DNA of 31,265 bases from positions 1-31,265 of the IMG/VR virus record IMGVR_UViG_3300037483_000960. One strand, given 5' to 3'. Shown here one piece after another: positions 2,504-20,383 of this stretch. The notes below the pieces were generated by a model. That model saw only the letters and a program-made list of their open reading frames with translations, was not told the DNA's origin and searched no databases. The first letter of the stretch is position 1, and every line of letters begins with the position of its first letter. Source of the stretch: a virus (taxonomy: Duplodnaviria > Caudoviricetes). The translations under genes and the position numbers were made by a program.

Positions 2504-2505
2504 GT

Positions 2506-3180
2506 CTACTCAGTCACGATCCACTGTTCGCCGTCCCAAGGGATGCTGTTGGGCGCTCCCGCGCTGACCGTGCGAAGAGGCACGTACACCGGCGCGCTCT
2601 CGGCCGAGGTCCCGCTTCCGTTCGAGGCCCTGGCGGTCAGAGCAGAACCCGGCATGAGTTCCGGCACATTCAGCGACCAGGAACCGCCCGTGCCGACAGG
2701 CACGAGCCCCGCGACCGAGCCGTCCACCAGCAGCGTCACAGTGGAGCCCGGATCCGCGCTGCCGGAGACGACGGTCTCCGCGATCCACGTGACCGTCGGC
2801 ACCGCCGGCACGTCGCCAGTCGCGGGCCACGACCCCGAGACGAGCCCGAGATCGGTCGTCGCGACGAACGACAGCGAGAGCTGCCGCGCCGCTCGATGGA
2901 ACGCGAGATCCAGCGTCGGCAGCCCAGTCACGTGCGGCACAGCCAGGATCGCCTTCTTGAAGACCGATCGAACGAGCGAGAGATTCGGGTTCTTGACGAG
3001 GACCTGGTCGAAGTAGGGCATCCCGACAGTCGGGTCGATGAACCACTCCCCTTTCACGAGCGAGAGGCTGGTCTCTATGGCCTGGCGGACCCAGGCCGCC
3101 CCACCGACGAGCTGCAGCTGCCCACCCGAGAGGTCGAGCTCGTTGCCGCCGCGGAGCTTGAGATCGAAGGTGTCCGGCAT
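2506..3180 (-). CDS. Baseplate wedge protein (Mu gp46 / gp25 / DUF2634-like) with C-terminal Ig-like domain
   Basis: VRQAIETSLSLVKGEWFIDPTVGMPYFDQVLVK motif, then VSGSADPGSTVTLLVDG..GSWSL Ig-like segment. Confidence 0.75.
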   Translation of the reverse strand: MPDTFDLKLRGGNELDLSGGQLQLVGGAAWVRQAIETSLSLVKGEWFIDPTVGMPYFDQVLVKNPNLSLVRSVFKKAILAVPHVTGLPTLDLAFHRAARQLSLSFVATTDLGLVSGSWPATGDVPAVPTVTWIAETVVSGSADPGSTVTLLVDGSVAGLVPVGTGGSWSLNVPELMPGSALTARASNGSGTSAESAPVYVPLRTVSAGAPNSIPWDGEQWIVTE

Positions 3181-3548: not shown

Positions 3549-4135
3549 GGCTCCTCCTCGCCGACGATGGTGGCGCTACCTCGGTGCGCGGTGGGGCCGA
3601 TCCCTCGACCCGCCAGGACGACGGCGTGGTCGATGGCGGCGACGAGCCGGCCGGTGTCTACGAGCGGTCGTGGCGCATCCTTGGCGGGCGTCTTCCGCCA
3701 GCTGCCCTTGCGCTGCTTCGCCTTGACGGTCGAGGGCGCGAGCGGCGGCGGAATGCCAGAGCCTTCGAGGATCGCGTTCTTCATGTCCGACTTCATCTTC
3801 ATGCCCATGATGTTGAGGACATTCGAGATAGTCGTCTTTCCGTCGTAGACGGCTGGGATGAGCTTGCGCAGGAGCTCGAGGTACTCCTCGCGCTTCGCGT
3901 CGAAGGTGCTGCGGATGAATGAGCGCTCCGGGACGTGCTCCGTGCCGAACTCATGGATAGCCGCGAGCACCACATTGGTCATGACCTCGGCTGTCGTCTT
4001 CGCTTCGGCCTGGTGCTCGACCGCTGCAGCCTTCTCGCCGAGCAGGCCGATCTTGGCGTAGGAGTCGCGCCCGCGCAGGGAGCGCAGAGTCTCCTTGAGT
4101 GCGTTCCATCCGAGGTCGCGATCGGTAACGCCCAT
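3545..4135 (-). CDS. Neck / tail-completion protein (HK97 gp10-like)
   Basis: LAAIHEFGT..VPERSFIRST and PPLAPSTVKAK..PLVDTGRL motifs; start taken as ATG 4135 (TGATG coupling). Confidence 0.8.
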   Translation of the reverse strand: MGVTDRDLGWNALKETLRSLRGRDSYAKIGLLGEKAAAVEHQAEAKTTAEVMTNVVLAAIHEFGTEHVPERSFIRSTFDAKREEYLELLRKLIPAVYDGKTTISNVLNIMGMKMKSDMKNAILEGSGIPPPLAPSTVKAKQRKGSWRKTPAKDAPRPLVDTGRLVAAIDHAVVLAGRGIGPTAHRGSATIVGEEEP

Positions 4136-6721: not shown

Positions 6722-8416
6722 CTATGCCGTCATGCCGACGTTGGGTTTCTTCCAGGCGTCCTCTGACGTCTTGGTGTTCTTCTTGTGGACCTCGTCAGCG
6801 TCCAGGTGCTCGGGCTCGTCCTTGCGATCTTGAGGAGCACCCGTCGCGCCGCGAGCAGCGGCGAGGCCCCGCGAGGCCGCGGTCTTCTCTTGCGAGACGA
6901 GGGCGCCCCGGTAGACCGCCTCCACGAAGGCGTCCGGCTCGCCGTCGAGCTTCACGTCGGGGAGGATCTTCATGATGACGGCCTCCTTGATCTTCCGGTC
7001 GGAGAGCTCATCGATCTTGGCCTGGGCGCCGAGGATACCCTTGGCCTTGTCTTCGAGCGCGACGCGGGCGCGGATGAGCTGCGGGAGGGCGTCCTGGGCG
7101 TCCTTGCGCGTCTTCTCGAGCTCGGTGACCTTCGATTCGGCCACGGTGGCGCGGGCGCGGAAGGCGTCGGTGTCGGCCTTCGCCTGGGTCGCGGCCTGCG
7201 CGGCGTCGGCGCGAGCCTGCTTGAGCGTCTTCTCCGACCCGTCGGCCCTCTCGTCACGCGCGGCGAGGGCGCGCTCGATGAGCTGTGCGCCCTGATCGTT
7301 CGCTACCTCGACCTCGATGCCGTCGATCTTGATCTTCACCATTCGATCCTCGGTGGTTCGGTTCTTGGGGCCTGGCAGCGGCTCGTCACAGATCCCGCGT
7401 ATCGCCACCCCGTCGGCCGTGTCCAGCTTGAGCCGCAGATCGGGCCCGCCTCGGGCAGTGCCGACCACGGCAACGTGATTTCCGCGGATGTTCCGCTGGA
7501 TGCAGTCGTAGCGCTGGCCCTGGTACTCCCCGGGCGCGTCCTCGAGGTCGCACGTGTAGCCGCAGGAGAGCTTGTCCTTGCCGGCGGTGACGGCTTTCAC
7601 GAGGTCGGCGTCGGTGATGAGGACGGTGGCGCGGACCTTGTCTCCGTCGCGCCTCACGGTCTCGCCGAGGTGGCCGCGCTGGTACTCGCGAGTGTTTTCG
7701 GAGTCGAGGAGTCCATCGGGAGGATGGTTGTCGGTGATGGGGACCATCGCGAAAGACGCGAGCGCGTCGGAGTGGAAGACGACGTCCTCGGGCCGGAGCT
7801 CGCGGCGCATCGAGCCGTCACCGCGGCGGTACTCCTGGATCCCGGTGCGCGCGATCGCGGCGTCCGCCTTGAGCCAGCCGTTGGGAAGGAGCGTGGGGCC
7901 ATCGAGGCGCTCGATGACATCGAAGCGTCGGACGGTGCGCGTGATGGCGCTGTCCTTCTTGGTCCTCTCGAGCGTCCTGCTGTAGCCGCTGGCCTCGGTC
8001 GCCCGGCGCGACATCAGCGCGGCCTCGTCTGTGCTGTCCTCCGCGCTACCGCTTGGATGCGTCCGATGGAACTGTGCGGCGCGGACGTGCTGGACCCATG
8101 CCTGCTCGTGCGCGTTGCCGCTCTGTGAGTGTAGGCCGTGCTCGTCGACCTTGGCGCGGTGGAAGCGCGCCGCCTCATTGTGGGAGCGCTCGTCCTTCGC
8201 CGACCCGGCAGCGGCCCAACGACCGTGATCGTCGCGAGGCACCTCGGCATCGCTACGCTCAGTGTCGCCGCGCTCCTTCTCAGGGGGGGCGCTGGCGTAG
8301 AGCGCTCGCTGCTGCGCCTTGGCGTCCTCCTCGGTGTCGTGCTCCCCGTGGACCTCGCCGGTCTCCGCGTTGACGCACGCCCATCTCTCGCCTCGCTTCT
8401 CGACCGCGTATGGCAT
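6722..8416 (-). CDS. DUF2213 prohead protease/scaffold with N-terminal extension
   Basis: IARTGIQEY..VPITDNHP..LSCGYTCDL..QRNIRGNHVAVVGTARGG; coiled-coil C-terminus. Start moved to ATG 8416 (MPYAVEKRG) because upstream DNA is low-complexity/promoter sequence. Confidence 0.88.
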   Translation of the reverse strand: MPYAVEKRGERWACVNAETGEVHGEHDTEEDAKAQQRALYASAPPEKERGDTERSDAEVPRDDHGRWAAAGSAKDERSHNEAARFHRAKVDEHGLHSQSGNAHEQAWVQHVRAAQFHRTHPSGSAEDSTDEAALMSRRATEASGYSRTLERTKKDSAITRTVRRFDVIERLDGPTLLPNGWLKADAAIARTGIQEYRRGDGSMRRELRPEDVVFHSDALASFAMVPITDNHPPDGLLDSENTREYQRGHLGETVRRDGDKVRATVLITDADLVKAVTAGKDKLSCGYTCDLEDAPGEYQGQRYDCIQRNIRGNHVAVVGTARGGPDLRLKLDTADGVAIRGICDEPLPGPKNRTTEDRMVKIKIDGIEVEVANDQGAQLIERALAARDERADGSEKTLKQARADAAQAATQAKADTDAFRARATVAESKVTELEKTRKDAQDALPQLIRARVALEDKAKGILGAQAKIDELSDRKIKEAVIMKILPDVKLDGEPDAFVEAVYRGALVSQEKTAASRGLAAARGATGAPQDRKDEPEHLDADEVHKKNTKTSEDAWKKPNVGMTA

Positions 8417-8430
8417 GGCCCCCACGTATC
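8414..8430 (-). promoter_or_regulatory. Putative late-gene motif GATACG-TGGGGGCC-ATG
   Basis: 17-bp exact match to 23278-23294; 11-bp core also at 20387-20397. Confidence 0.65.
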
Positions 8431-8645
8431 GCAGCGCGCCCGCTCGCGCGCCCACGCGCCCCACGCGCCACGCCCTCCCCACGCGCCCCACGGCCCCTCC
8501 CCACGCCCTCCTCGCGACCTTCCCGCGCGCCCCACGCCCGCGCCCATGCGACCTCCCCACGCGCTCCCCTCCCCCGCGCCATGGCGCGCCATATGGCCGC
8601 CGCTCGCCCCTGCGCGGCCTCCCACGCCCCTGCAAGCGCCCGCGA
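8431..8645. repeat. C-rich low-complexity intergenic tract with recurring CCCACGC units
   Basis: Strong C>G skew on the + strand; diverged similarity to 11380-11580. Confidence 0.7.
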
Positions 8646-8675
8646 GCGACCTGTTTAGGCCCGGTTCTCCTGCGC

Positions 8676-8738
8676 TTACCCGAATGGCGATCTTGTCTTG
8701 CGTCCAGGTTTGACCTGCGACCGTGGATAAGGCATACT
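8676..8738 (+). promoter_or_regulatory. Island promoter P1
   Basis: TTACCCGAAT 8676-8685; TTGACC 8710-8715; 17-bp spacer with CGACCGT; CATACT 8733-8738. Confidence 0.85.
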
Positions 8739-8768
8739 CGAAACATCAAAGGCGAGGCACACGACGCA

Positions 8769-8957
8769 ATGCGACGACCAAATACGAACAGACCCAGAGG
8801 CAGGGCTTTGCACTATCAAGAGATCATCTGTACTGCCCCGATGGCGGACGCCGAGCTCGGGGAGGCGCCCTTCGCTGGGCTCACGGACAGCAGCGATCCG
8901 GCCTGGAACAGCGACGATCACGCGGATGACGAGCGCAGGACGGCTCGCGGCACCTGA
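8769..8957 (+). CDS. Small hypothetical protein (62 aa, acidic C-terminal half)
   Basis: First ATG after P1, GGCGAGG upstream; stop lies next to the RBS of the following gene. Confidence 0.45.
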   Translation: MRRPNTNRPRGRALHYQEIICTAPMADAELGEAPFAGLTDSSDPAWNSDDHADDERRTARGT

Positions 8958-8970
8958 GAGGAAAACACCC

Positions 8971-10317
8971 ATGGCGAAAATTGAGCTAACCATAGAGCAG
9001 CACTATGTTGATTGGGGCTTGGCCGAGGCCGTGCGCGAATTTGTTCAGAATGGCCTGGATGCTGAGCAGGACGGGCACGCGTTCACGGTCTCATATGACG
9101 CGCGAAAGGAGTCGCTCCTGTTCGTGTCGGAGGGCGCGAGCCTCACGACGCGCACGCTACTGCTCGGCTCGACAACCAAGCGGGAGCGGTCGGACCAGAT
9201 CGGGAAATTCGGCGAGGGGTACAAGCTCGCGCTCCTGGCGTGCGTGAACGCGGGCCACCCCGTCGTGTTGCGCACGGGAGACGAGCGATGGGTTCCCAGC
9301 ATCGAGTGCTCGATGAAGTTTGGGGGGGCAAGGGTGCTCGTTATCTCGACGCTCAAGCGGCCGACGCAGAGCCTCGACGCGGTGAGTATCGAGGTGGGCG
9401 GCGTCACTGGGGAGGCATGGCAGGAGATCCGCCCTCGGTTCCTGTCGCTCGAGCCCCCGCTCGAGACTGCGCGGTCGGAGGGGCAGGGGACGATCCTCCT
9501 CGATGAGGAGTACGCGGGGAAGGTCTACCTGAGCGGGATCTTCGTCCAGAAGATCGATGATTTTCGGTATGGCTACGACCTTCCGGCGCGGCGCGTGTCG
9601 CTCGACCGCGACCGGCGCATGGTCGATCGCAGCCAGGCGGAATGGGCTATCGCGCAGCTCTGGGGGGCCGTCTGCGAGCAGGATCCCGAGCACCTCGACG
9701 CCTTCATGTCGCTCTTGAGCTCGGGCGCGCCGGACGTGCGTTCCGCGCGATACGGCTCTGCGACATCAACCCTGGTGAAGCAGGGGCTCGCCGCGCTCTT
9801 CCGCGAGCGGTTCGGTGACACGACCCTGCCGGTGTCCTCCGAGGAGGAAGGCGAGCAAGCTCGAAGCATCGGCCGGCGTGGCGTGGTGGTTTCGGCGGAG
9901 CTGCGAGAGATCCTGTGGCCCGAGGTCGGGAACCTGGCGACGGCGCGAGACGAGCTCCGCCGTCAGGTCGCGACCGAGGTTGAGATCGAGTCCCTCGCCG
10001 CGAGCGAGGCGCAGCACTGGGCGCGAGCGGTCTCGCTCGTCTCGCGCGTCCGGCCGCACCTTCGTCTCGCCCAATTCAAGATCGTCGAGTTCCCCTCGCC
10101 CGATCTGCGCGGCCTCTACAAGTCGGAGCCTGACAAGGACTCGGAGATCCAGATCTCCCGCTCGACCCTAGCCACCTTCAAGTCTGTCCTCACGACCGTG
10201 GTTCACGAGGTCGCGCACGACACGGCCGGCGGCGCACGCGATGCCTCGATCGACTTCGAGCTCGCGCTTCAATCCCTCTGGGCTGACATCGTCCAGAGCC
10301 TCGCAACCCCGAGCTAG
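8971..10317 (+). CDS. GHKL-type ATPase fused to C-terminal HEXXH metallopeptidase-like domain
   Basis: AVREFVQNGLDA (N box), LLLGSTTK, IGKFGEGYKLA (G2 box); LTTVVHEVAH near the C-terminus; GAGAGG RBS. Confidence 0.8.
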   Translation: MAKIELTIEQHYVDWGLAEAVREFVQNGLDAEQDGHAFTVSYDARKESLLFVSEGASLTTRTLLLGSTTKRERSDQIGKFGEGYKLALLACVNAGHPVVLRTGDERWVPSIECSMKFGGARVLVISTLKRPTQSLDAVSIEVGGVTGEAWQEIRPRFLSLEPPLETARSEGQGTILLDEEYAGKVYLSGIFVQKIDDFRYGYDLPARRVSLDRDRRMVDRSQAEWAIAQLWGAVCEQDPEHLDAFMSLLSSGAPDVRSARYGSATSTLVKQGLAALFRERFGDTTLPVSSEEEGEQARSIGRRGVVVSAELREILWPEVGNLATARDELRRQVATEVEIESLAASEAQHWARAVSLVSRVRPHLRLAQFKIVEFPSPDLRGLYKSEPDKDSEIQISRSTLATFKSVLTTVVHEVAHDTAGGARDASIDFELALQSLWADIVQSLATPS

Positions 10318-10364
10318 CTCCGCGTCCAGTACGCGACCGTGGTTGACACTCACCGTGAGGCCCC

Positions 10365-11375
10365 ATGATGTACGCTGAGACGCTGGATCCCTCGATGCGC
10401 GGCCTCCTTGCCGCGTGGACGCTCCCGCCCGCTCGGCGGAAGGCGATCCTCGCCGGTGCGGAGCTGCGCATCGAGGGCCTTATCGCGGCGGGGTACCTGT
10501 CGCGGTTCCCGAACGGCGCGCTCTATCTCGCCGACGGCGGAACGCTCGTATTGGGCCCGAAGATGAGGGCAACGCTCGAGGAGCTCGCGATGGTCATGCG
10601 CGCGAAGGGCGAGCCGTTGCCAGCGGCGGCGGGGCCGAGGATCGCGGCGCCGGCCGCTCCGCTCGAGGGGGGCGGCTACCGTGCCGAGTGCATGCGCCTG
10701 CGCGCGACGGTGGCGCGGCTCGAGGAAGAGCTCCGAAGCGTGGGGAGCGCGAGGCCGCGCGCCTCGAGGCCGAAGGCCTCCGCCGCGGACCCGTTCTCGA
10801 CGCCGGCCAGGGCACTCGTCGCGTGGTACGCGGCGGCCGGGCCCGACGCCTTCCATCTGCCCGGCTGGCGGAAGACGGTCATGGACGATCACGGGCGCCT
10901 CTCGCCGGAGGCGTTCGGGGCGGCCATGCTGGAGCGGGTCGAGGGGACGCGAGCGCTCGCCGCGAGCTCGGCGGCCTACCTTGCCGCGGGCGAGGCCGCC
11001 ACGGGCAAGGGTTCGGGCACCTACTACTGGCATCCGCGCCTGCGCTGCTACGTGCGGGCGCCAGCGCGGGGTGAGGCACGCGACGCCTTCGAGCGGGAGG
11101 TCCGCGCGCAGTACCAGGAGGCTCGCCGCGCGAGGATCCTGGGCGAGCGGCGAGCCGGCCAGCGAGCTCGCGCGGAGAAGCGCCGGATCGCGAAAGCGGC
11201 GGCCGAAGACGTCGGCGCATGCCCCCGGCACGCGCCCATCGCCTTCCGAATCCGTCACGCGCTCGAGGCGAGCCGAGCGGCTCGGAAGGCTTCCCACTTC
11301 CCGCGCACGCGCAAGCGCCCGCGCGCGAACACGCGCCCGCGCAAGCGGCGCTCGCACCTCAAGCTCGTCTCGTAA
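10365..11375 (+). CDS. Hypothetical protein, Arg/Ala-rich basic C-terminus
   Basis: 336-aa ORF co-oriented with neighbours, GC-rich third positions; no family recognised. Confidence 0.6.
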   Translation: MMYAETLDPSMRGLLAAWTLPPARRKAILAGAELRIEGLIAAGYLSRFPNGALYLADGGTLVLGPKMRATLEELAMVMRAKGEPLPAAAGPRIAAPAAPLEGGGYRAECMRLRATVARLEEELRSVGSARPRASRPKASAADPFSTPARALVAWYAAAGPDAFHLPGWRKTVMDDHGRLSPEAFGAAMLERVEGTRALAASSAAYLAAGEAATGKGSGTYYWHPRLRCYVRAPARGEARDAFEREVRAQYQEARRARILGERRAGQRARAEKRRIAKAAAEDVGACPRHAPIAFRIRHALEASRAARKASHFPRTRKRPRANTRPRKRRSHLKLVS

Positions 11376-11379
11376 CCGT

Positions 11380-11580
11380 GCGCGCCTGCGCGGCGCAGCG
11401 CGCTCGCCGCGCCTCCTATCCCAGCGCGCCCGCGCCCGCGCGAGCCCCGCGCGCCCTCCCCTACCCCACGCCCTAGCCCCGCCATATCGCGCGCCCCCAC
11501 GCGCCATACGGCCCCGCGCGGCACCGCGATGCCCCGCGCACCACTCCCGCCGCTCCCTTGATCCCCTGAGCGCGCCCCAA
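11380..11580. repeat. Second C-rich low-complexity intergenic tract
   Basis: C skew; shares CCCCACGCCCT and CGCGCCATAYGGCC with 8431-8645. Confidence 0.65.
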
Positions 11581-11612
11581 AGGCCGCTAGAATTGACCCG
11601 GGTTTCCATCAC

Positions 11613-11675
11613 TTACCCGAATCGCTATTTTCTTTTCCGACCGTACTTGACGTGCGCCCGTAGATGAGCGATACT
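11613..11675 (+). promoter_or_regulatory. Island promoter P2
   Basis: TTACCCGAAT 11613-11622; T-rich tract; TTGACG 11647-11652; 17 bp; GATACT 11670-11675. Confidence 0.85.
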
Positions 11676-11723
11676 CCAATCATCGAAGGGCAACCAAGCC
11701 CCCGAAGAAAAGCGAGAGACACG

Positions 11724-11879
11724 ATGACTGCAAAGGCCCTGAAGACCCTCCACCACAACGCCGCAGTGAAGGCGTGGGTCACCCGCAACGCCAACCTGAA
11801 GGCCGCGGCGAAGGCGGCGAAGGCCTCGCAGTTCGTCCCGCTTCGCCTGCGCTTTCCTTCTGCGGCTGCGAAGGCCTGA
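11724..11879 (+). CDS. Basic Ala/Lys-rich peptide, 51 aa, one KAWxTR motif
   Basis: MTAKALKTLHHNAAVKAWVTRNAN...; paralog at 13927; GAGAG RBS-like site after P2. Confidence 0.75.
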   Translation: MTAKALKTLHHNAAVKAWVTRNANLKAAAKAAKASQFVPLRLRFPSAAAKA

Positions 11880-11885
11880 GCGGTC

Positions 11886-11949
11886 GGGCGGCCCCAAGGG
11901 GCCGCCCCCTCACCAGACCTCTCGAGCTCGCTCGAGGGGCCATGCGAGG
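11886..11949 (+). ncRNA. Twin-hairpin cis element, copy A
   Basis: GGGCGGCCC/GGGCCGCCC stem abutting CCTCACC-AGA-CCTCTCGAG-CTCG-CTCGAGGGG-CCA-TGCGAGG. Confidence 0.65.
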
Positions 11950-11983
11950 GCGCAGCACACACACATCACGGAAGGGACACACC

Positions 11984-13117
11984 ATGGCGGTCATCGCGCA
12001 GACGACGGAACAGCGGCAGGTAGCGCAGGGCAAGCTCGGGGCGATCATCCAGGCCGGGCGAGCGAAGGCCGCGCAGGGGCTCGAGGCAATGCAGCGCGAA
12101 TTCAAGATGCGCAAGGATCTGCGCGTGCGGCCAGGCGCCATCGACATCGAGACCGTGGAGAGCGACGGCGGGTTCAAGTGGAGGCCCGTTGTCGTCGACA
12201 AGAAGGCCGGGACGCGCGTCGCTTTCGAGATGACGGGCCACGCCCGCGGCCAGTTCCTCTCACGCGCCGGGATCCCGGGCGCGTTCGTCGACACCCTCGT
12301 CCAGCACGGCCAGGCCGAGCTTCTCCGTGAGAACATCCTGAAGGTGCTTCCCCATGAGTCGGCCGATGGCCTCCTCGTCCGCACGGTGGGCGACACGGCC
12401 AAGGCGTTCCTCTCGCCCGCGTACAAGTGCCTCGACAACGCGCTTTTCTTCGACACGTTCGTTGAGGAGTCGCTCAAGGCGAAGCTCGTCCCCTACCGCG
12501 GCGAGGTGTCCGACACGCGCGGCTTCCTGTCCTTCCTGCGGCCCGAGATCGTCGAGATCGCGCCCGGAGAGTTCGTGGTTCCGGGCGTCGAGATGCGCGG
12601 CTCGGACTACGGGAACGGCGCGCAGGAACTGAATGCGATGTTTCTGCGCCTCCTGTGCCTGAACGGAGCGGTCGGTTACGACATGTTCCGCAAGATCCAC
12701 ATCGGCCGCCGTTTCAGCTCGGCCGAGTACGGCGAGGACAATGTCATCAAGCTGTCGCAGAAGACGATCGAGCTCGACGTCTCGACGGTCCGATCGGCGC
12801 TGTCGGATACGATGAAGGGCGTCACCAAGCACCTGGACGCCTTGACCGAGTCGCTTCGCGAGGCCGCCACGAAAGAGATCAACGTCGAGTCGACAATCTC
12901 CGTGCTGAAGAAGAAGGGGCTGAAGACGGCATCGCTCGCGAAGGTGAAGGCCCTGTATGAGAACGAGGCCTTGCCGGTCGAGGCGCTCCCGGCCGGCCAG
13001 GGCGCGTGGAGGCTCTCGAACGCGCTGTCCTTGCTGGCGAACGCGACGAGCGACGTGGACGAGGCCGCCGACCTCCGGGACGCCGCCTATGCTGTGCTGC
13101 CCATGCCGAAGGCCTAA
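11984..13117 (+). CDS. DUF932-like protein
   Basis: LLVRT..AFLSPAYKCLDN..GSDYGNGA..FLRLLCLNG..KIHIG..AWRLSNAL; GGAAGGG RBS. Confidence 0.75.
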   Translation: MAVIAQTTEQRQVAQGKLGAIIQAGRAKAAQGLEAMQREFKMRKDLRVRPGAIDIETVESDGGFKWRPVVVDKKAGTRVAFEMTGHARGQFLSRAGIPGAFVDTLVQHGQAELLRENILKVLPHESADGLLVRTVGDTAKAFLSPAYKCLDNALFFDTFVEESLKAKLVPYRGEVSDTRGFLSFLRPEIVEIAPGEFVVPGVEMRGSDYGNGAQELNAMFLRLLCLNGAVGYDMFRKIHIGRRFSSAEYGEDNVIKLSQKTIELDVSTVRSALSDTMKGVTKHLDALTESLREAATKEINVESTISVLKKKGLKTASLAKVKALYENEALPVEALPAGQGAWRLSNALSLLANATSDVDEAADLRDAAYAVLPMPKA

Positions 13118-13123
13118 GAGTAT

Positions 13124-13188
13124 GGGCGGCCCCGGGGGGGCCGCCCTCTCACCCGACCCGCCGAGGAGACTCGGCAGGCCAGGTGAGA
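13124..13188 (+). ncRNA. Twin-hairpin cis element, copy B (diverged, compensatory changes)
   Basis: TCTCACC-CGA-CCCGCCGAG-GAGA-CTCGGCAGG-CCA-GGTGAGA after the GGGCGGCCCC hairpin. Confidence 0.65.
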
Positions 13189-13219
13189 AGCGCAGCACTC
13201 CAGCGGAAAGGAAGCCGTC

Positions 13220-13783
13220 ATGCAGGCGACTCAAGCGGCGTTGCTCGCGGCGATAGCTACCAAGCGGCCCGACCCGAAAGATCTCATCGGGAAGAAGAAC
13301 CGGATCCCGAGCGGACCCGACGAGATCCCGACGCCGGGCGTCAGCCGCCTGGGCTTCTCGGGCGTCATGCGAGGTCTCGCGAATAAGGGCCTGGTCGTCT
13401 GCTACCCCGGACCCTCCGTCAGCCTCACCGTGAAGGGCGTCAAGGCGTACCTCGAGAGCAACGCGTCCGCGCCAGCGCCCGAGCCTGCCCCCGCGCCCGC
13501 GCCCGCGCCCACCCCGAAGGGCAAGGCCCCCCGCACGCCAGCGCCTACCCCTGCGACCGTCGCCGAGCTCTCCCCCGCGCAGAAGGCGTGGGTCACGCGC
13601 CGCGCAACGGCCGCGGCGAAGGCCGCCGAAGCCTCCACCCCCGCGCCCGCGCCGAAGGGCAAGCCCCCCCGCGCGCCAGCGCCTACCCCCGCGGCCGGCG
13701 GCGAGCTCTCCCCCGCGCAGAAGGCGTGGGTCACGAGGCGCGCGATGGCCGCCGCGAAGGGCAAGGCCCCCGCGCCCGTGTAG
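13220..13783 (+). CDS. Putative winged-helix protein with Pro/Ala linker and two LSPAQKAWVTRRA repeats
   Basis: L..KGLV...LTVKG wing-like motif; 138-bp internal duplication; paralog at 14243. Confidence 0.75.
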   Translation: MQATQAALLAAIATKRPDPKDLIGKKNRIPSGPDEIPTPGVSRLGFSGVMRGLANKGLVVCYPGPSVSLTVKGVKAYLESNASAPAPEPAPAPAPAPTPKGKAPRTPAPTPATVAELSPAQKAWVTRRATAAAKAAEASTPAPAPKGKPPRAPAPTPAAGGELSPAQKAWVTRRAMAAAKGKAPAPV

Positions 13784-13813
13784 GAGCCAGAATTAGCCCC
13801 GGGGTTCCATGAG

Positions 13814-13876
13814 TTACCCGAATAGCGATTTTCTTTTGCGTCCATGCTTGACGTCCGACCGTGGATAGGGCATACT
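13814..13876 (+). promoter_or_regulatory. Island promoter P3
   Basis: TTACCCGAAT 13814-13823; TTGACG 13848-13853; 17 bp with CGACCGT; CATACT 13871-13876. Confidence 0.88.
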
Positions 13877-13926
13877 CAATCATCGAAAGCGAGGCACACC
13901 GCCCCGCAAGGAAAAGAGAGAACACC

Positions 13927-14139
13927 ATGACTGCAAAGACCTTCAAGAGCATCCGCCACGCAGCCGCAGTGAAGGCCTGGAACACCCGCAACGCGAACAG
14001 CCGGAGCGCGATCGCAGCGAAGGCCTGGAAGACCCGCAACGCCAACGCGGCGAAGGCTGCGGAGGTGAAGGCCACGGTGGTGAAGGTGGCGAAGGTGGTA
14101 GCGGCGAAGGCGAAGGCTGCGAAGGCGAAGGCCGCCTGA
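13927..14139 (+). CDS. Basic Ala/Lys-rich peptide, 70 aa, two KAWxTR motifs
   Basis: MTAKTFKSIRHAAAVKAWNTRNANSRSAIAAKAWKTRNAN...AKAKAA; paralog of 11724. Confidence 0.78.
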   Translation: MTAKTFKSIRHAAAVKAWNTRNANSRSAIAAKAWKTRNANAAKAAEVKATVVKVAKVVAAKAKAAKAKAA

Positions 14140-14147
14140 GCGAGCGC

Positions 14148-14210
14148 GGGCGGCCCGAAGGCCGCCCCCTCACCCGACCTCTCGAGCGAGCTCGAGGGGC
14201 CGTGTGAAGG
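14148..14210 (+). ncRNA. Twin-hairpin cis element, copy C
   Basis: GGGCGGCC-CGAA-GGCCGCCC then CCTCACC-CGA-CCTCTCGAG-CGAG-CTCGAGGGG-CCG-TGTGAAGG. Confidence 0.65.
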
Positions 14211-14242
14211 ACCGCAGGACAAACCGAAGGAAGGGACGCACC

Positions 14243-14818
14243 ATGACCGACATCGAGAGCGCACTACTCACCGCGATCGCCACATCCAGGCCGGACCCGA
14301 AGGACATGGTCGGGAAGAAGGGGAAGGTTCCCAGCACCTACAAGGCCTTCCCGATCGAGGGCATCACTCGCCGAGGGTTCGGCGGTGTCGTGAATGCGCT
14401 CATGCGCAAGGGTCTCGTGGCCTGCTACCCCGCGCAAGGCAAGGAGCCGATCGGGATCGCCCTGACCGCCAAGGGGCTCGAGGCCTATCGCGCCCTGCCG
14501 CCAGCCCCCGCGGCGAGCGAACCCGCGGCCCCCGCGAGCGAGCCTGCCCCCGCGCTCGAGGTCGCCACCCCTGCGCCCGCGAGCGAGCCCGCGCCCGCGC
14601 CCATGCCCGTGCCCGACGAGGCCGCATGGGCGGCGCAGATCGCGTCCTACATCGCGACCAGCATGCCGGTTGCCCCACCACCGAAGCCCACGCCCGCGCC
14701 CGGAACCGCAGGCCTGTCCCCCGCCCACAAGGCATGGGTCACGCGCCGCGCCATGGCCGCCGCCAAGGCCGCCGCGGAAGCCGCGCAGATCGCCAGCGCG
14801 GCCGTGTCGCCGAAGTGA
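14243..14818 (+). CDS. Paralog of 13220: putative winged helix, Pro/Ala linker and LSPAHKAWVTRRA
   Basis: Shared ALL.AIAT.RPDPKD..GKK..GF.GV...L..KGLV.CYP..LT.KG..AY. Confidence 0.78.
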   Translation: MTDIESALLTAIATSRPDPKDMVGKKGKVPSTYKAFPIEGITRRGFGGVVNALMRKGLVACYPAQGKEPIGIALTAKGLEAYRALPPAPAASEPAAPASEPAPALEVATPAPASEPAPAPMPVPDEAAWAAQIASYIATSMPVAPPPKPTPAPGTAGLSPAHKAWVTRRAMAAAKAAAEAAQIASAAVSPK

Positions 14819-14831
14819 CGCCACGACGGAA

Positions 14832-14863
14832 GGGGGCTTGTCGCGCTCGCGCCACAAGCCCCC
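14832..14863 (+). terminator. GC-rich hairpin, possible terminator
   Basis: GGGGGCTTGT / ACAAGCCCCC perfect 10-bp inverted repeat after the stop; no U tract. Confidence 0.5.
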
Positions 14864-14914
14864 CCCTCCCTACCCGCACCTACCAGACCAGCGCGATTAA
14901 TGTTGCGTCCATGC

Positions 14915-14943
14915 TTGACATACGACCGTAGATAGGCGATACT
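14915..14943 (+). promoter_or_regulatory. Island promoter P4
   Basis: TTGACA 14915-14920; 17 bp with CGACCGT; GATACT 14938-14943; CAATCATCGA leader as in P2 and P3. Confidence 0.88.
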
Positions 14944-14993
14944 CAATCATCGAGGGACGGGGCAAGGGGCCCCGAAGAAAACGGAGAGACACC

Positions 14994-15719
14994 ATGAACA
15001 TCGCCGACAAGATCAAGAAGCTCCTGGCCCTCGCGCAGTCTTCCAATCCGAACGAGGCCGCCCTCGCCGCGGCTCGCGCGCAGGAGCTCATGGTCAAGTA
15101 TGCGATCGACGAGGCGCAGCTCGCGGGCACGCCCGGCCATGTCGAGGAAGAGATCAAGTCGGAACCAATGAGCGGAAAATACGGCGCCGTGCAGCACTGG
15201 CACGCGCAGCTCGCCGACGCGATCGCGCGCTCGTTCTTCTGTCGCGTCTACTTCGTCCCCCGCGGTGACGTCTACATGGTTGGTCGGGCCACGGATCGCG
15301 AGGCCCTCCGCGCCACCTACCTCTACCTCCTGGGCGAGATCACGCGCATGAGCGACTCCGCATGGATCGCCGCGCGAGCGGGCCTCCCCATGCTGAAGAG
15401 CCAGCAACTCGGCGGGTACGCGATCAAGTGGAAGCGCGCCTTCCATGTCGGCGCCGTGGCCACGGTTCGCGAGCGCCTCGTCTCGAGCCTTCGAGAGCTG
15501 AGCGCCGCCGCGCCCTCCGCCAACGGGTCGGCCCCGAGCGTCGCGATCGTCCTCGCCGCGCTGCAAGAGGCCGTTGACCTCTACGTCAAGAAGAGCCTCA
15601 ATCTGCGAACGACCTCGAGCCGGCCCGTCAACCCGAGCGGCTACGAGCAAGGGCAGAAGGCCGGCTGGTCCCTCAACCTCGACGAGCGCGCCGGTGCCAG
15701 CAAGCGCCTTGGCTCCTAA
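14994..15719 (+). CDS. DUF2786-domain protein
   Basis: IADKIKKLLALAQSSNPNEAALAAARAQELMVKYAI N-terminus; GYEQGQKAG C-terminus. Confidence 0.85.
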   Translation: MNIADKIKKLLALAQSSNPNEAALAAARAQELMVKYAIDEAQLAGTPGHVEEEIKSEPMSGKYGAVQHWHAQLADAIARSFFCRVYFVPRGDVYMVGRATDREALRATYLYLLGEITRMSDSAWIAARAGLPMLKSQQLGGYAIKWKRAFHVGAVATVRERLVSSLRELSAAAPSANGSAPSVAIVLAALQEAVDLYVKKSLNLRTTSSRPVNPSGYEQGQKAGWSLNLDERAGASKRLGS

Positions 15720-15789
15720 AGCCGCCCCCTACTCACCCGAAGGGCCCGGAGCGCACGGCGAAGGTGGCGAAGGCCGCCTGAGCGAGCGC

Positions 15790-15853
15790 GGGCGGCCCCG
15801 AGGGGCCGCCCCCTCACACGACCTCTCGAGCGAGCTCGAGGGGCCATGCGAGG
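15790..15853 (+). ncRNA. Twin-hairpin cis element, copy D
   Basis: GGGCGGCCC/GGGCCGCCC then CCTCACA-CGA-CCTCTCGAG-CGAG-CTCGAGGGG-CCA-TGCGAGG. Confidence 0.65.
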
Positions 15854-15880
15854 CGCAACACAGCGAAGGAAGGGGACACC

Positions 15881-16093
15881 ATGAGCGCACCGAAGAGGAA
15901 GCTCGTCACCGTCGAGAAGGTCGTCGGTGGGCGCGAGGATGGCATGTGGATCTGCCGCGACTGGCGCCGTTGCTTCATCCTTGTCCGCGGATCCAGGCGC
16001 GAGGCACTCGAGGATGGGCTCGCCTACGCCATCGGCCACGCCGGCCGCGCGTGCCTCGACCTGTCGCTCTTCGATGTAAGCCTCGACCGCTAG
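15881..16093 (+). CDS. Hypothetical protein, 70 aa
   Basis: GGAAGGGG RBS and ACACCATG start context as in other island genes. Confidence 0.7.
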   Translation: MSAPKRKLVTVEKVVGGREDGMWICRDWRRCFILVRGSRREALEDGLAYAIGHAGRACLDLSLFDVSLDR

Positions 16094-16113
16094 ATCCCCA
16101 GGAGCCCGCAACC

Positions 16114-16590
16114 ATGGAAACCGATCACATGTACACGCTGAAGGGTCACCACGAGCTCAAGACCTCAGACGGCTACGCCATGGCCGGGTGGCTCTGCTGC
16201 GACGGGGTGAAGATCGCCACCTACGAGGACGGCGGATACGGCGGCGAGATGCGCGTGGACTACGTCGGAGGTGGAACGGGAGCAGTGGCGGCCGAGGCCG
16301 CGCTTATCGCGCACCTTGCTGCGCTCCCCCCGATGCCTGCAGGCTACGAGGGCGGCGAGCCGATGGCGTGGGACGTCTCTTGCTTCATCGGGCACCTCGC
16401 CGACGCAGCGGCACACGAACGGCGCTTGAATCGGCTGTGCATGAGAAACACGGTGTTCACCGTCCCCGGAGACCCAGAGGGCGAGCTCCACACCCTGAAA
16501 GTCGCCGTCAGCGACAAGGCACGCGCGTTCGTCCTGCGGAAGTACCCGGGCGCCGTCATCCTCAACGATCGCGTCGTCAAGAAAACCTAG
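16114..16590 (+). CDS. Hypothetical phage protein, 158 aa
   Basis: AGGAG RBS; DGVKIATYEDGGYGGE segment; start moved to ATG 16114. Confidence 0.7.
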   Translation: METDHMYTLKGHHELKTSDGYAMAGWLCCDGVKIATYEDGGYGGEMRVDYVGGGTGAVAAEAALIAHLAALPPMPAGYEGGEPMAWDVSCFIGHLADAAAHERRLNRLCMRNTVFTVPGDPEGELHTLKVAVSDKARAFVLRKYPGAVILNDRVVKKT

Positions 16591-16597
16591 CCCGTAC

Positions 16598-16626
16598 TTG
16601 ACGTGCGACCACTTTCCGCGCATGCT
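16598..16626 (+). promoter_or_regulatory. Island promoter P5 (variant spacer)
   Basis: CCGTACTTGACGTGCG identical to P2; TTGACG 16598-16603; 17 bp with CGACCAC; CATGCT 16621-16626. Confidence 0.7.
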
Positions 16627-16647
16627 GCAAGGAGGAGGCACCACCTC

Positions 16648-17223
16648 ATGCCGAAGGCTGCGACCGCCCGTAGACCACTGGAGCGCCAGCGCCGCGAGCG
16701 CGGGGCCGCTGCGCTGCGCTCCTTCGAGACGATCCGTCTACTGCTGGCCGAGCCTCAAACGAAGTCGGGCCTCAAGGAAGAGCTGGGGTGCTCTATCTCG
16801 AGTGTCGAGCGGCTGATCCAGGACATCGAGGGCGCTGGGTTGACGCTCGACTCGGAGCGCTCCGCGCCCAAGCTGAACGCCGAGGGGGCGCCGAAATACC
16901 ACTCGGAGAGCGGGCAATATGTGCTGTACCGGCTTCTTCCTGAGACGCTCACGCGACGTCTCGCGTCGCGCAGGCGGCGCGATAACGACTCGACGACCGC
17001 ACAGCTCCTCGACATGATCCACCTGCTCGAAGGGAAGAAGCACACGCCCGGAGATCTCGCGAAGCGACTCGAGTGCTCGCGCAGGACGGTCGAACGACTC
17101 TTCCACGTGCTCCGCGGGGCGGGCCTCACGCTTGACAGCGAGCGTAGCGGACGAGAGGTGTACTACAGTCTCCCGAGCGAGACGCTCGCAACCATGCTCG
17201 GGCAGGCCGCACTGAAGGGATGA
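16648..17223 (+). CDS. Tandem winged-HTH protein (two HTH_11 / WYL-regulator-type N-terminal domains, no WYL domain)
   Basis: Repeats LGCSISSVERLIQDIEGAGLTLDSERS..LYRLLPETL and LECSRRTVERLFHVLRGAGLTLDSERS..YYSLPSETL; AGGAGG RBS. Confidence 0.8.
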   Translation: MPKAATARRPLERQRRERGAAALRSFETIRLLLAEPQTKSGLKEELGCSISSVERLIQDIEGAGLTLDSERSAPKLNAEGAPKYHSESGQYVLYRLLPETLTRRLASRRRRDNDSTTAQLLDMIHLLEGKKHTPGDLAKRLECSRRTVERLFHVLRGAGLTLDSERSGREVYYSLPSETLATMLGQAALKG

Positions 17224-17235
17224 AGGAGGCTGAAA

Positions 17236-17655
17236 ATGGCGATGAGCATGGAGCGGCGCGCAAACCTCTGGAGCTTGGGCGAGAAGATCAGGACGGCCGC
17301 GCCCATGGAGGCCACGGACGACGCGGAGCTCGCGAACGCTGTACCGGAGCTGCTCGTGGAGATCGATCGGCGAAGGGCCGAGGCGGATAAGCTCCTGGCA
17401 GCGGCCGAGGCGGACGACCGACCCCCGTTCGCACGCAGGATTGCGGCCTCCCCGCTCGACCTGAAGACCCTCGACGAGACGAGAGGGGTCGCCCGCAAGC
17501 TCGCGACGGGCGCAGCGACCGAGGATGAGGTGGGCTACCTCGCCGCCGAGGCGCCCGACCTGCTCGAGGAGCTGGAGCGGCTCGAGGGGATCATCTACGG
17601 GCGCTTCGGCTGGACCGAGGAGGATTTCGAGAAGGGCGGCGTCAGAATCGAGTGA
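17236..17655 (+). CDS. Hypothetical acidic helical protein
   Basis: GGAGG RBS; internal repeat AVPELLVEIDR / EAPDLLEELER; converges on the ART gene with a 14-bp overlap. Confidence 0.7.
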   Translation: MAMSMERRANLWSLGEKIRTAAPMEATDDAELANAVPELLVEIDRRRAEADKLLAAAEADDRPPFARRIAASPLDLKTLDETRGVARKLATGAATEDEVGYLAAEAPDLLEELERLEGIIYGRFGWTEEDFEKGGVRIE

Positions 17656-20383
17656 GGCTGTCCTCTTTCGCGCCACGCTTCGAGAGGCCTACCGGACTCG
17701 CGCCCAGGTACTCGCCGTCGAGCACCGTGTAGCCGTCAGTCGTCTTATAGACCTTGTTGATCTGCCAGCGGCTGTCGCGGTTCGGCAGGAGCTCATGCTC
17801 GCTCGTCCAGTAGCGAACACGCGTACCGGCCGGCATGCGGATCCGCATGAGGACCGCCTTTGTTTTGTCACTACCCGCGAACTCGATGGCCTTATCTATC
17901 GAGAGCGAGTGTGACGAAAACCCCTCGTCATGGAGGATCCCGCTCTTGCCAGCCAGGACGCTTGCGGGATCCTTCGCGAGCTTCCCGTACTTGAATCCGC
18001 GCCACACCACGAAGTCCCGGGGCGTCTCAGGGGCGGCGTTCAAGGCCTCGGTGAGCGCGCGCAGCATGTCCGCGTTCTTTCCGTCCTGGACATTGCCACC
18101 TCGAAGGTGGTCATTCATCCACTCGAAGCCGATACCCTTGAAGCTGCCCATGGCGTGCTGCATCGCGCCCGAGAGCCACTTGCTCCACTTCTCGAAGGGG
18201 CCGGTGGTCTTCTCCTTTATCTCCTGGTCGGCGTGATTCGGGTTCTCCCCGCCGAGCTGCTCTTGGGCCTTGTGCCTCTGGAGGCCGAGGGGCTTGGCCT
18301 TCCACGTGCCACCTCCGGCCTTCGGTGACTCCGACGCGGGCGACGGCTCCGGTGGCGCTGTGGCGTTCCCCTCGAACTTCTTGAGGTAGGCCGAGGCCTC
18401 TTCGAGCTTCCCCGCCTTGATGAGCTTCGAGTAGGCCGCCTTGTGGCCGGCCTTCATGGTGGAAGGCTTCGCGCCGGCGTTCTGGTGAGGCGCTGGAGGC
18501 GCCGCCTTTTCCGGCTCGGGCTCGGGCTCGGGCTCGGTCGCCGCGGGAGCGGTCTGTGTCGGGGGCGGCGGTGGCGCGTTCGCAGGGAGTACCCACGGCT
18601 TCCCGGTCTCAGGGTCGAGGGACGGCTTGCTCGCGCCGGATGCTGCCTGCGCGGTCGAGGTCTGCTCCTGGAGGAGGTGAGCCTGGGCCGCCACGTAGGG
18701 GAGCCGCTCCTCGCCGGTCTCCTTCGGCGTGAGGCCGTGCGATGACTGCGCGTGGATGTTGGTCGGGGTCTGTTCGGCTTGCTTTGCCTGTTCAGCCTCG
18801 ATCGCCTTGGCCAGGTGCGCCTCGGCGTTCGGGATGACCTTCTGGTGCCAGATCTCGAGCTCGTGGAGGTCGGTGGTCTTCGCCGCGAGCTCGTGGTTCT
18901 CGGCCAGGCTCGCCTTCCACTTTTCGATGTCCGGGCTCGTGAGCTTGGCGAGGGTCGCCGCCTCCGCCGCGTTGCCCTTCTTCGTCAGCGCTGCCTTCAC
19001 CCCAGGGGTGAGCTTCGGGAGCGGGTTCTGTTCGTGGTGAAGACCGCCCTGGAACTGGCCGCCACCGGGCTGGCCGGCGGGGATGCGCAGGAACTCCTCC
19101 TCGTTCCAGTCCTCACGCGCGCCGTCCTGGTGCGCGAACTTGAACGGCTTGCCCTGGACACCGCCGATGAGCTTCTCGAAGTCGCCACGGATCGATTCCT
19201 TCCGAGCCACCGCGGCCTTGACGAAGGCCTCGCCCTTCCCGATGGACTCTGCGTAAGGCCGCACGAGGCTTGCGAACCGTTCGCTCGGGATGGCCTCGAC
19301 CTTGGCGATCGTCGGCGCGAGCTCGTGCGGGTTCCACTTCACGGACCCGTCGCCGACGCCCTTCCAGAACTGATTGTAGTAGGGCGGTTTCTCGCCGTAT
19401 ATCTCGGTGTTGGGCTGGTAGTGGACGTCGAGCTTGTCCTTGCCGAAGTAGCGGTAGCCCTGCTCCTTGTCGATGCCGACCACGCGGCCGTCAGACGTGC
19501 GCAGGAGGTTCCCTCCGTGCGTGTCGTGCTGGCTCATGACCCAGTCGAGAACGTGTTCCTGGGCGACGTCGAGCTTCTCGCGCTCCGTGAGCTTCGAGGG
19601 CTCGACCTGGGCGAGGTTCGAGGGGCTCCCGAGCGAGAGGATCGGCTGGAGGGTGCCGAGCTTGCCGTTGATGGTCGCGGCTGCGACCGGGACGTGGTCC
19701 TTGACCTCATGTACGACCTCCGCGAAGGCGACCTGGGCATGCACGGCATAGGGCTTGGGCTCGTTTGTCCCCTTCACCGTCGCGGCCTTGAAGAGCCAGC
19801 GCTGGCCGGTGGCGTCCTTGTAGACGTCTTTCTCGCCCGCGCCGCCCATGTCCTTCCCGCTCTGCTCGAAGGTGAGCGCGTCCGGCGAAGGCACCGAGAC
19901 GCGAGAGAGCGCGGCGAGCGATCCAGGCGCCGCAGCGGACGCGACCGGCGCTGGCGGCTCATGCGCGGCCGGAGCCAGGGGCTCATGTGGCGCCGCGGCC
20001 GGCGTCGGCTGTGTGGCCGGCGCCGAAGCCTTGGCGAACTTTCCGCGGTAGGCCGCTGCCGCCTCGTGCTTGCCTCCCGCGACGAGCTTCGAGTGGTGAG
20101 CCTTGTGCGCAGCGTTCATGCCCGCGGGGAGGCCGTGGGCAGTGGTCCACTGGCCGCCCTTGCCGCGTGGGACGTCTTCCCATCCGGCGTCGGAGCGGTC
20201 GCGCAGCTCGGCGAGGAACGCCCATCCGAGCTTCTCGAGCTTCGCCTTCTGTGATGGCGAAAGAGACAGCGGGGCGGAGTCAGCTCGGAGCACCTTTGGG
20301 CTTGGCGCGCCTCGGCGGTGGAGGACGACGGTGCGTCTCGCGGCGACGTCGGCCCTGAACTGTGCGAGCTTCCTGCTGTTCAC
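17642..20383 (-). CDS. MuF-adjacent multidomain effector: HipA/PI3-4-kinase-like domain plus C-terminal VIP2-like ADP-ribosyltransferase
   Basis: Kinase: MGGAGEK..RWLFK..LDWVMSQHDTHGGNLL..VVGIDKEQ. ART: VVWRG..DEGFSSHS..SEHELL (R-S-E triad). Start GTG 20383 or 20392. Confidence 0.82.
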   Translation of the reverse strand: MNSRKLAQFRADVAARRTVVLHRRGAPSPKVLRADSAPLSLSPSQKAKLEKLGWAFLAELRDRSDAGWEDVPRGKGGQWTTAHGLPAGMNAAHKAHHSKLVAGGKHEAAAAYRGKFAKASAPATQPTPAAAPHEPLAPAAHEPPAPVASAAAPGSLAALSRVSVPSPDALTFEQSGKDMGGAGEKDVYKDATGQRWLFKAATVKGTNEPKPYAVHAQVAFAEVVHEVKDHVPVAAATINGKLGTLQPILSLGSPSNLAQVEPSKLTEREKLDVAQEHVLDWVMSQHDTHGGNLLRTSDGRVVGIDKEQGYRYFGKDKLDVHYQPNTEIYGEKPPYYNQFWKGVGDGSVKWNPHELAPTIAKVEAIPSERFASLVRPYAESIGKGEAFVKAAVARKESIRGDFEKLIGGVQGKPFKFAHQDGAREDWNEEEFLRIPAGQPGGGQFQGGLHHEQNPLPKLTPGVKAALTKKGNAAEAATLAKLTSPDIEKWKASLAENHELAAKTTDLHELEIWHQKVIPNAEAHLAKAIEAEQAKQAEQTPTNIHAQSSHGLTPKETGEERLPYVAAQAHLLQEQTSTAQAASGASKPSLDPETGKPWVLPANAPPPPPTQTAPAATEPEPEPEPEKAAPPAPHQNAGAKPSTMKAGHKAAYSKLIKAGKLEEASAYLKKFEGNATAPPEPSPASESPKAGGGTWKAKPLGLQRHKAQEQLGGENPNHADQEIKEKTTGPFEKWSKWLSGAMQHAMGSFKGIGFEWMNDHLRGGNVQDGKNADMLRALTEALNAAPETPRDFVVWRGFKYGKLAKDPASVLAGKSGILHDEGFSSHSLSIDKAIEFAGSDKTKAVLMRIRMPAGTRVRYWTSEHELLPNRDSRWQINKVYKTTDGYTVLDGEYLGASPVGLSKRGAKEDSLTRF

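Follow-up and report, generated by a model that had tools for sequence, protein, structure and literature searches.

The virus record IMGVR_UViG_3300037483_000960, analysed here as a whole (the window: 31,265 bases, linear, estimated completeness 37%, GC content ~68%), carries four copies of a twin-hairpin element, which is a real cassette that recurs between the genes of an island in this phage fragment. Around a gene for a DUF932-like protein the cassette occupies the same slots that are occupied by type II hammerhead ribozymes in one related clade. As a tentative reading, held at somewhat less than an even chance, we propose from computational analysis that the cassette is a processing signal of the plus-strand message, of which hairpin 2 would be cut in an RNase III-type manner and hairpin 1 would have a shielding role.

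The four copies were found where the first-pass annotation had placed them, with copy C ending at 14209 (Table 1). A 20-base core pattern matched the window four times with 0 mismatches, compared with a mean of 0.07 matches in shuffled sequences, of which none (0/100) reached four. On the plus strand the predicted fold of every copy consists of two hairpins that abut (z -3.1 to -5.5), in agreement with the earlier description. Hairpin 1 is a perfect stem of 8-10 G-C pairs with a variable loop, and hairpin 2 is a single ungapped stem of 19 positions with a four-base loop and scattered mismatches, in which 96 of 114 cells are Watson-Crick pairs across six full copies. A 3x3 internal loop, previously taken for a feature of hairpin 2, is not conserved, because all six full copies form the G-C pair in its middle and the homologous copy L013a has a perfect 19-bp stem without any mismatch. 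For copy B the described changes of C-G to G-C and of T-A to C-G and the GAGA loop were confirmed, but a broken pair had gone unmentioned: position 7 from the loop is T-G in copies A, C and D and a C-A mismatch in copy B. Conservation of structure rather than sequence, as had been proposed for the whole element, is seen in the inner stem, but in hairpin 1 and the outer CTCAC arm the sequence itself hardly varies; the loops vary, and a conserved unpaired base was not found in the element core. Length alone is not unusual, as raw hairpin matches at 14/19 pairs numbered 7-16 in Markov controls; in the hairpin scan of the window only copies B, C and D reached 15/19 pairs. At E 1 the covariance model passed over 15721-15755, which might be a degenerate fifth copy.

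The position of the element between genes is equally regular. In all four copies a stop codon is followed after 6-8 nt by the element and after a further 27-34 nt by an ATG with a Shine-Dalgarno-like site, as annotated before. Since this site stays mostly unpaired (0.45-0.83), the element does not act by hiding it. The AAG-GCC-(GCC)-stop context reported upstream was present before each copy, but the stop before copy D, 60 nt after the real stop of the DUF2786 gene, ends no credible gene: it belongs to an orphan tail that shares 25 of 29 bases with the flank of copy C. A U tract follows neither hairpin on either strand of the four copies and none of them is among the six terminator-like sites of the window, so that the element was rightly set apart from canonical intrinsic terminators. 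Copies recur every 1.0-1.6 kb in successive gene gaps, at 211-1449 nt from the nearest -10 box (copy A 211 nt, copy C 272 nt), and the promoter scan of the window revealed no promoter-like site 3' of any copy. As a separate observation, the genes that precede the element, although mutually unrelated, share the endings AKA or KAA (window 11879, 13117, 14139; L013:18, 1261; L014:2506), which may be part of the DNA cassette or a C-terminal degradation tag.

To find homologs, an alignment of 14 of 38 DUF932-like proteins was used as query, which yielded 30 loci (21 metagenome, 8 viral, 1 genome). Two of these, L013 and L014, contain the element; both are metagenome contigs with 85-86% protein identity. 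L013 has full copies (L013a and L013b) on both sides of the DUF932-like gene. L014 has one copy 3' of this gene, which retains hairpin 1 but not the outer 3' arm of hairpin 2, with a pyrimidine-rich tail following in place of the ribosome-binding site; the peptide-plus-element unit 5' of the gene is missing. A covariance model, suggested in the first-pass annotation as a check, was run over the window and 42 loci and found seven copies (4 in the window, 3 in homologs) and nothing else convincing. These are the training copies, and other matches in the 43 sources were minus-strand images of the seven or weak ones at E >= 0.03. The model had no match in 8 further loci or in three phage records with an 82-89% identical capsid protein. 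In viral contigs, three DNA patterns, promoter pattern included, revealed no further copies, a looser pattern gave 12 matches that all lacked hairpin 2, and a single-protein scan with the DUF932-like protein found nothing. An alignment search with KAWVTRR, a motif of island proteins, gave one locus in which the element is absent, and annotated phages and plasmids contained no meaningful match to the element.

In the seven-row alignment 84.7% of cells pair. Double-sided change was found in 7 of 27 pairs, a value as high being reached by 12 of 500 shuffles, and the number of cells with double-sided change (12) was reached by none of 500; this count is lowered because L014 is partly misaligned in hairpin 1. 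As the inner stem alters its sequence and yet keeps pairing, it was counted in favour of processing. The L014 copy, with hairpin 1 retained where no ribosome-binding site follows, was counted likewise. The copies also appear, from sequence comparison, to be recombination points. Identity within the window is 86-92% among A, C and D (A versus D 92%) and 89% between L013a and L013b, compared with 67% between genomes for the same slot before the DUF932-like gene (A versus L013a). A joint linking two copies was found in none of the contigs examined.

Type II hammerheads emerged from the same set of loci. A scan with Rfam at gathering score over 18 of the 30 loci gave three of them, a permissive scan of 8 of these 18 gave eight hammerhead matches in four loci, and a core-motif scan of all 30 matched only L016, L017, L019 and L042. 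In each of the four a Hammerhead_II lies directly 5' of the DUF932-like gene (28.5-32.5 bits, E 0.009-0.097; none reaches the gathering score of 37), and in three of them the stop codon before it is no more than 7 nt away. Directly 3' of the gene a hammerhead is present in L042 (50 bits) and L017 (32 bits), and two further ones, above the cut-off, are located one gene further on. This layout around the DUF932-like gene equals that of copies A and B. Five of the eight matches in these GC-rich contigs are below the Rfam cut-off, and L017 has one with a very short stem I and L019 one with CUGAAGA. The four loci form one clade (100/100) with 47-49% protein identity, which the tree did not place as sister of the clade of the window; the remaining 24 of 30 loci carry neither twin hairpin nor hammerhead. 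Clustered hammerheads are described as flanking single prophage genes and cleaving, and were proposed to turn long transcripts into gene-length messages (PMC3088659), and a review regards it as unresolved what purpose such clusters of self-cleaving ribozymes serve in phage operons (PMC6765202). The element shares with the prophage hammerheads (RF02276; PMC3088659) the slots at the DUF932-like gene in one clade and the arrangement of several copies flanking genes. In contrast to them it has no hammerhead core, and the likeness concerns how both may work: RF02276 had no match in this genome at E 10, and the core scan of the window detected none of the core strands (CUGANGA, GAAA, three-way junction).

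A sequence of events consistent with these observations would start with the host polymerase making polycistronic RNA from the promoter-like sites P2-P4. A host double-strand RNase of the RNase III type, an enzyme whose cuts leave 2-nt 3' overhangs, would cut the 19-bp hairpin 2, the short GC-rich hairpin 1 would then guard the new 3' end of the upstream message, and the downstream message would start shortly before its own ribosome-binding site. Gene-sized messages of differing stability would be the outcome, and as a side effect the copies may serve as crossover points that shuffle genes. The E. coli (Escherichia coli) RNase III has a helix minimum of 11 bp and is blocked by G-C at proximal-box position 2 (PMC1540722). 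Cellular substrates are usually shorter than ~20 bp, and the polycistronic precursor of T7 early RNA carries five RNase III signals (PMC3867540). The 19-position stem lies within the range of such helices (at least 11 bp, typically up to ~20-22 bp). The T7 early signals (e.g. R1.1) resemble the element as repeated long intergenic hairpins of a region transcribed by host polymerase, with a stem length in range and mismatches tolerated. They differ in that the element shows no preferred match to the E. coli proximal and distal boxes and has a much higher GC content, an abutting second short hairpin and no fixed internal loop.

Several results weigh against cutting by RNase III. With pair counts determined in vivo for E. 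coli (PMC6212723, Table S4), ten stem positions of each of the six full stems were scored in all registers. The best register had a mean of -8.84, compared with -8.50 +/- 0.53 in column-shuffled stems (p 0.73, with an E. coli matrix that may not be that of the host), and it would cut just 4-5 bp from the loop. In a register chosen by eye beforehand, copy A fell below the 5th percentile of modelled E. coli sites, the other 5 of 6 copies being inside the range. The stem is moreover GC-rich, while at proximal-box position 2 A-U or U-A is favourable and G-C blocks the E. coli enzyme. Hammerhead slots were matched from 4 of 30 related loci that form one clade and thus amount to one independent observation. 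The covariation comes from roughly two lineages (A/C/D and B/L013/L014) and is therefore not R-scape-grade. In addition, the loops of copy A and of C/D are reverse complements of each other, a signature of template switching. This process can invert spacers, and it can repair stems and make compensatory changes in one step (PMC8604942, PMC8794818), so that some of the compensation may be mutational. The RNase III-type processing or stabilising site named in the first-pass annotation gained indirect support from the hammerheads in the same slots and from a sufficiently long stem, but as the E. coli pair matrix favours no register, RNase III processing stays a proposal. The CTCA arm, noticed by eye as a possible proximal box, failed the same pair-matrix test and was rejected.

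Evidence on the strand in which the element acts is mixed. A plus-strand RNA is supported by three GNRA loops in three copies, all different (GAGA, GGGA, GCGA), and by the fixed stop-to-start position. On the opposite side, the minus strand gives the lower folding energy in each of the four window copies. Among 9 distinct non-Watson-Crick types, 5 are of the A-C type, which is a wobble pair on the minus strand only, 1 is a plus-strand G-U and 3 are other; the resulting 5:1 lean to the minus strand is not significant alone (one-sided binomial ~0.11, by hand).

The main rival explanation, which we regard as rather unlikely, assumes that no cut takes place. The hairpins would be a leaky terminator without U tract or a barrier to 3' exonucleases, as are host repetitive extragenic palindromic (REP) stem-loops, and would grade expression along the operon, the 3' arm of hairpin 2 covering the C-rich tract after hairpin 1 and allowing read-through. 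A different U-less hairpin with a C-rich tail (14827-14868) ends the P3 unit and C-rich tracts precede P1, P2 and P4, which fits this explanation, as does L014, where the 3' arm of hairpin 2 is missing and the C-rich tail is exposed, although that argument comes from one locus. Also in line with it, the 12 matches of the looser pattern, all from unrelated viral contigs, combine a hairpin-1-like stem with CTCAC in the absence of hairpin 2, and 6 of 12 are located shortly 5' of a purine-rich site and an ATG. Termination in vivo has been reported for the PeSL stem-loops found in T4-type phages (PMC2839356). A terminator without a fresh promoter behind it would, however, silence the downstream gene, and none of the copies is followed by a promoter-like site, while an exonuclease barrier has no need of a 19-bp second stem. 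The PeSLs (PMC2839356, PMC4122927) are also similar as repeated intergenic cassettes with orphan genes, near sigma-70-like promoters and with signs of recombination; they unite promoter and stem-loop in one unit, whereas here 4 promoter-like sites are separate from 4 copies with two stems each. An identity as host REP-type repeat is not supported: two metagenome runs that contain the phage revealed no abundant repeat of this kind, one other contig in each matching 36 nt of copy B at 80%, which is a weak negative because contigs drop repeats. For ribosome stalling by a hairpin close behind the stop, as known for E. coli REP sequences, no support was found in the literature searched.

It is improbable that the element works at the level of DNA, as a single-stranded minus-strand hairpin or as a homology patch that marks cassette boundaries for shuffling in a PeSL-like or attC-like manner. 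Such a role would agree with the lean of folding energies and mismatches to the minus strand and with copies being more alike within genomes than in the same slot of two genomes, but homogenisation follows from any repeat and is no proof of purpose, and the GNRA loops favour plus-strand RNA. Copy D carries an orphan piece of the gene upstream of copy C, L014 lacks the peptide-plus-element unit before its DUF932-like gene, and a tyrosine recombinase is encoded on the fragment; these points, too, are in line with shuffling. With integron attC sites the element shares one imperfect palindrome after each gene and the better pairing of the minus strand. attC sites have RYYYAAC and GTTRRRY core boxes and extrahelical bases. 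Neither box was detected near any copy (0/4), the hairpins contain mismatches and no bulged bases, and the recombinase reached 31 bits on the integron integrase model (TIGR02249) with a cut-off of 265, so it is not an integron integrase; attC identity was rejected. One motif per successive gap is nevertheless the attC arrangement (PMC5737381).

Of distinctly low probability is also a role of the RNA in binding a protein of phage or host, such as an island protein with KAWxTR motif, by which translation or decay would be tuned without cutting. The nearly invariant hairpin 1 and outer CTCAC arm would be expected of such a site and the copies travel with genes of the KAWxTR motif, but the loops vary freely, the core has no unpaired conserved base, and in the island proteins no RNA-binding domain was detected.

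We consider it very improbable that the element is a new class of self-cleaving ribozyme that has replaced hammerheads in these gene slots. Its location in the hammerhead slots of a related clade recalls the argument from shared slots by which the twister, pistol, hatchet and twister-sister classes were found (PMC6765202). Against this, the element consists of two plain hairpins, with one perfect stem and with no conserved unpaired residues, junction strand or pseudoknot partner, and no ribozyme family was matched up to E 10. An Rfam search had been suggested in the first-pass annotation: with Rfam 15 at gathering threshold the window gave 0 matches, and at E up to 10 the region 8400-17700 gave 7 at chance level (best E 0.51), so that no family was matched. 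Hammerhead, hepatitis delta virus (HDV)-like, pistol, twister and twister-sister layouts were also compared by eye and none fits. Hardly more credible is an antiterminator that binds RNA polymerase like the put RNAs of HK022, which act persistently through the beta-prime zinc-binding domain, also named in the annotation: put RNAs likewise comprise two abutting stems of ~65-70 nt in a phage region with host-type promoters, and copies A and C at 211 and 272 nt from a -10 box are near the 270 nt of putR, but put is promoter-proximal, one per promoter and acting over 10 kb as one copy, and it needs a triplex, a bulge in stem I and particular bases that are unpaired or non-canonical (PMC9378689). 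The element has no bulged stem I or conserved non-canonical core; its hairpin 1 is perfect, its hairpin 2 can be perfect and its copies lie at up to 1449 nt from a -10 box in successive gaps.

The minus strand of the window encodes a head module (terminase, portal, Mu F-like protein, DUF2213 protease, cement protein and major capsid protein). Inside this module and opposite to it, flanked by the Mu F-like and protease genes, lies the plus-strand island (~9 kb; 8660-17655) with mostly unnamed genes, which is absent from the relative G002 (65 kb, capsid protein 82% identical), where the two genes are ~0.8 kb apart. Judged by its host-type promoters the island is probably an early region: 4 sigma-70-like sites were observed with 0.4 expected, 3 of the 4 within a 93-nt repeat (8660-8752, 11597-11689, 13798-13890; shorter versions at 14914 and 25408). 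A 50-nt conserved block 5' of the -35 box in this repeat is possibly an operator or UP element. The C-rich, G-poor plus-strand tracts directly before P1, P2 and P4 (8431-8610, 11431-11520, 14851-14910) resemble Rho loading sites, and a similar tract is present in L043. Window DNA was present in two sequencing runs, both labelled sediment metagenomes, with no RNA run listed.

Within the island, the DUF932-like protein has no direct Pfam match; DUF932 is found on 18-61% of members in Atlas neighbours (score 0.97). The KAWxTR motif occurs six times in four island open reading frames (ORFs) without family match (11769, 13583, 13721, 13972, 14020 and 14729, plus strand), namely two short Lys/Ala-rich peptides and two proteins with a possible winged-helix N-terminus (TM < 0.5). 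The first codons of the ORFs at 13927 and 11724 are similar. In L014 the space between the DUF932-like and helix-turn-helix (HTH) genes is taken by a pair resembling, by eye, a RelE-type toxin and an HTH antitoxin (L014:2686-3462), instead of by the KAWxTR and DUF2786 genes. Outside the island, a candidate late promoter, (G/T)ATACGTG or GGTACGTG followed by a G-rich run, was noted on the minus strand at 8430, 20397, 23294, 25392 and 31097, just 5' of several minus-strand genes, and also 5' of the protease gene in L043. The 825-aa product of the gene at 17642-20119 (minus strand), next to the gene for the Mu F-like protein, resembles ADP-ribosyltransferases in its C-terminal domain (Pfam E 6e-5, narrowly missing the cut-off) and had no tblastn match in G002. 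An exact direct repeat of 127 nt (1-127, 274-400) is located at the contig start in a repeated tail-protein segment, and the related phage L045 has a transfer-messenger RNA (tmRNA) gene (1180-1508) 1 kb 5' of the head protease gene.

Table 1. Copies of the twin-hairpin element, neighbouring features of the window and type II hammerhead pairs of related loci.
Feature	Position	Strand	Basis
Copy A: hairpin 1 11886-11907, 9 bp; abutting hairpin 2 11908-11949, 19-position stem, loop CTCG	11886-11949	+	pattern, folding
Copy B: hairpin 1 13124-13146, 10 bp; hairpin 2 13147-13188, GAGA loop, three A-C type mismatches	13124-13188	+	pattern, folding
Copy C: hairpin 1 14148-14167, 8 bp; hairpin 2 14168-14209, loop CGAG	14148-14209	+	pattern, folding
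Copy D: hairpin 1 15790-15811, 9 bp; hairpin 2 15812-15853, loop CGAG	15790-15853	+	pattern, folding
Promoter block P2, repeated; site TTGACG-17-GATACT at 11647-11675	11597-11689	+	consensus match only
Promoter block P3, repeated; site 13848-13876	13798-13890	+	repeat and promoter scan
Promoter-like site P4, TTGACA-17-GATACT	14915-14943	+	promoter scan
51-aa Lys/Ala-rich ORF, KAWxTR motif, stops 6 nt before copy A	11724-11879	+	no Pfam or PHROGs match
DUF932-like gene, 377 aa, between copies A and B	11984-13117	+	phrog_1362 E 7e-22
187-aa protein, two KAWVTRR motifs, 3' of copy B	13220-13783	+	motif scan
70-aa Lys/Ala-rich ORF, two KAWxTR motifs, stops 8 nt before copy C	13927-14139	+	motif scan
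191-aa paralog of the 13220 protein, 3' of copy C	14243-14818	+	sequence comparison
Different single long hairpin, C-rich tail, no U tract, ends P3 unit	14827-14868		folding
DUF2786/DUF7168 gene	14994-15719	+	Pfam
Orphan tail copied from end of 13927 ORF, 25/29 bases identical, directly 5' of copy D	15761-15789	+	alignment
70-aa ORF 3' of copy D	15881-16093	+	no Pfam or PHROGs match
Type II hammerhead pair	L016:1932-1996, 3617-3686		
Type II hammerhead pair	L017:6546-6616, 7797-7843		
Type II hammerhead pair	L019:1863-1927, 3556-3625		
Type II hammerhead pair	L042:1225-1289, 2487-2550		

The element is absent from Rfam and is a variant not previously listed, so far of three sequences. No description of it was found in the literature, in a search made mostly outside subscription journals and without the supplements of PMC5737381, which contain many phage motifs. 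If the element only stabilises or attenuates, it would be an ordinary phage regulatory repeat of limited interest. If, as the processing reading proposes, one lineage fills these slots with a protein-cut hairpin and a protective stem, the selected thing would be the cut between genes and not the ribozyme itself. As a pair, the element and hammerhead loci offer a direct swap comparison and with it a cheap test of why phages cut there.

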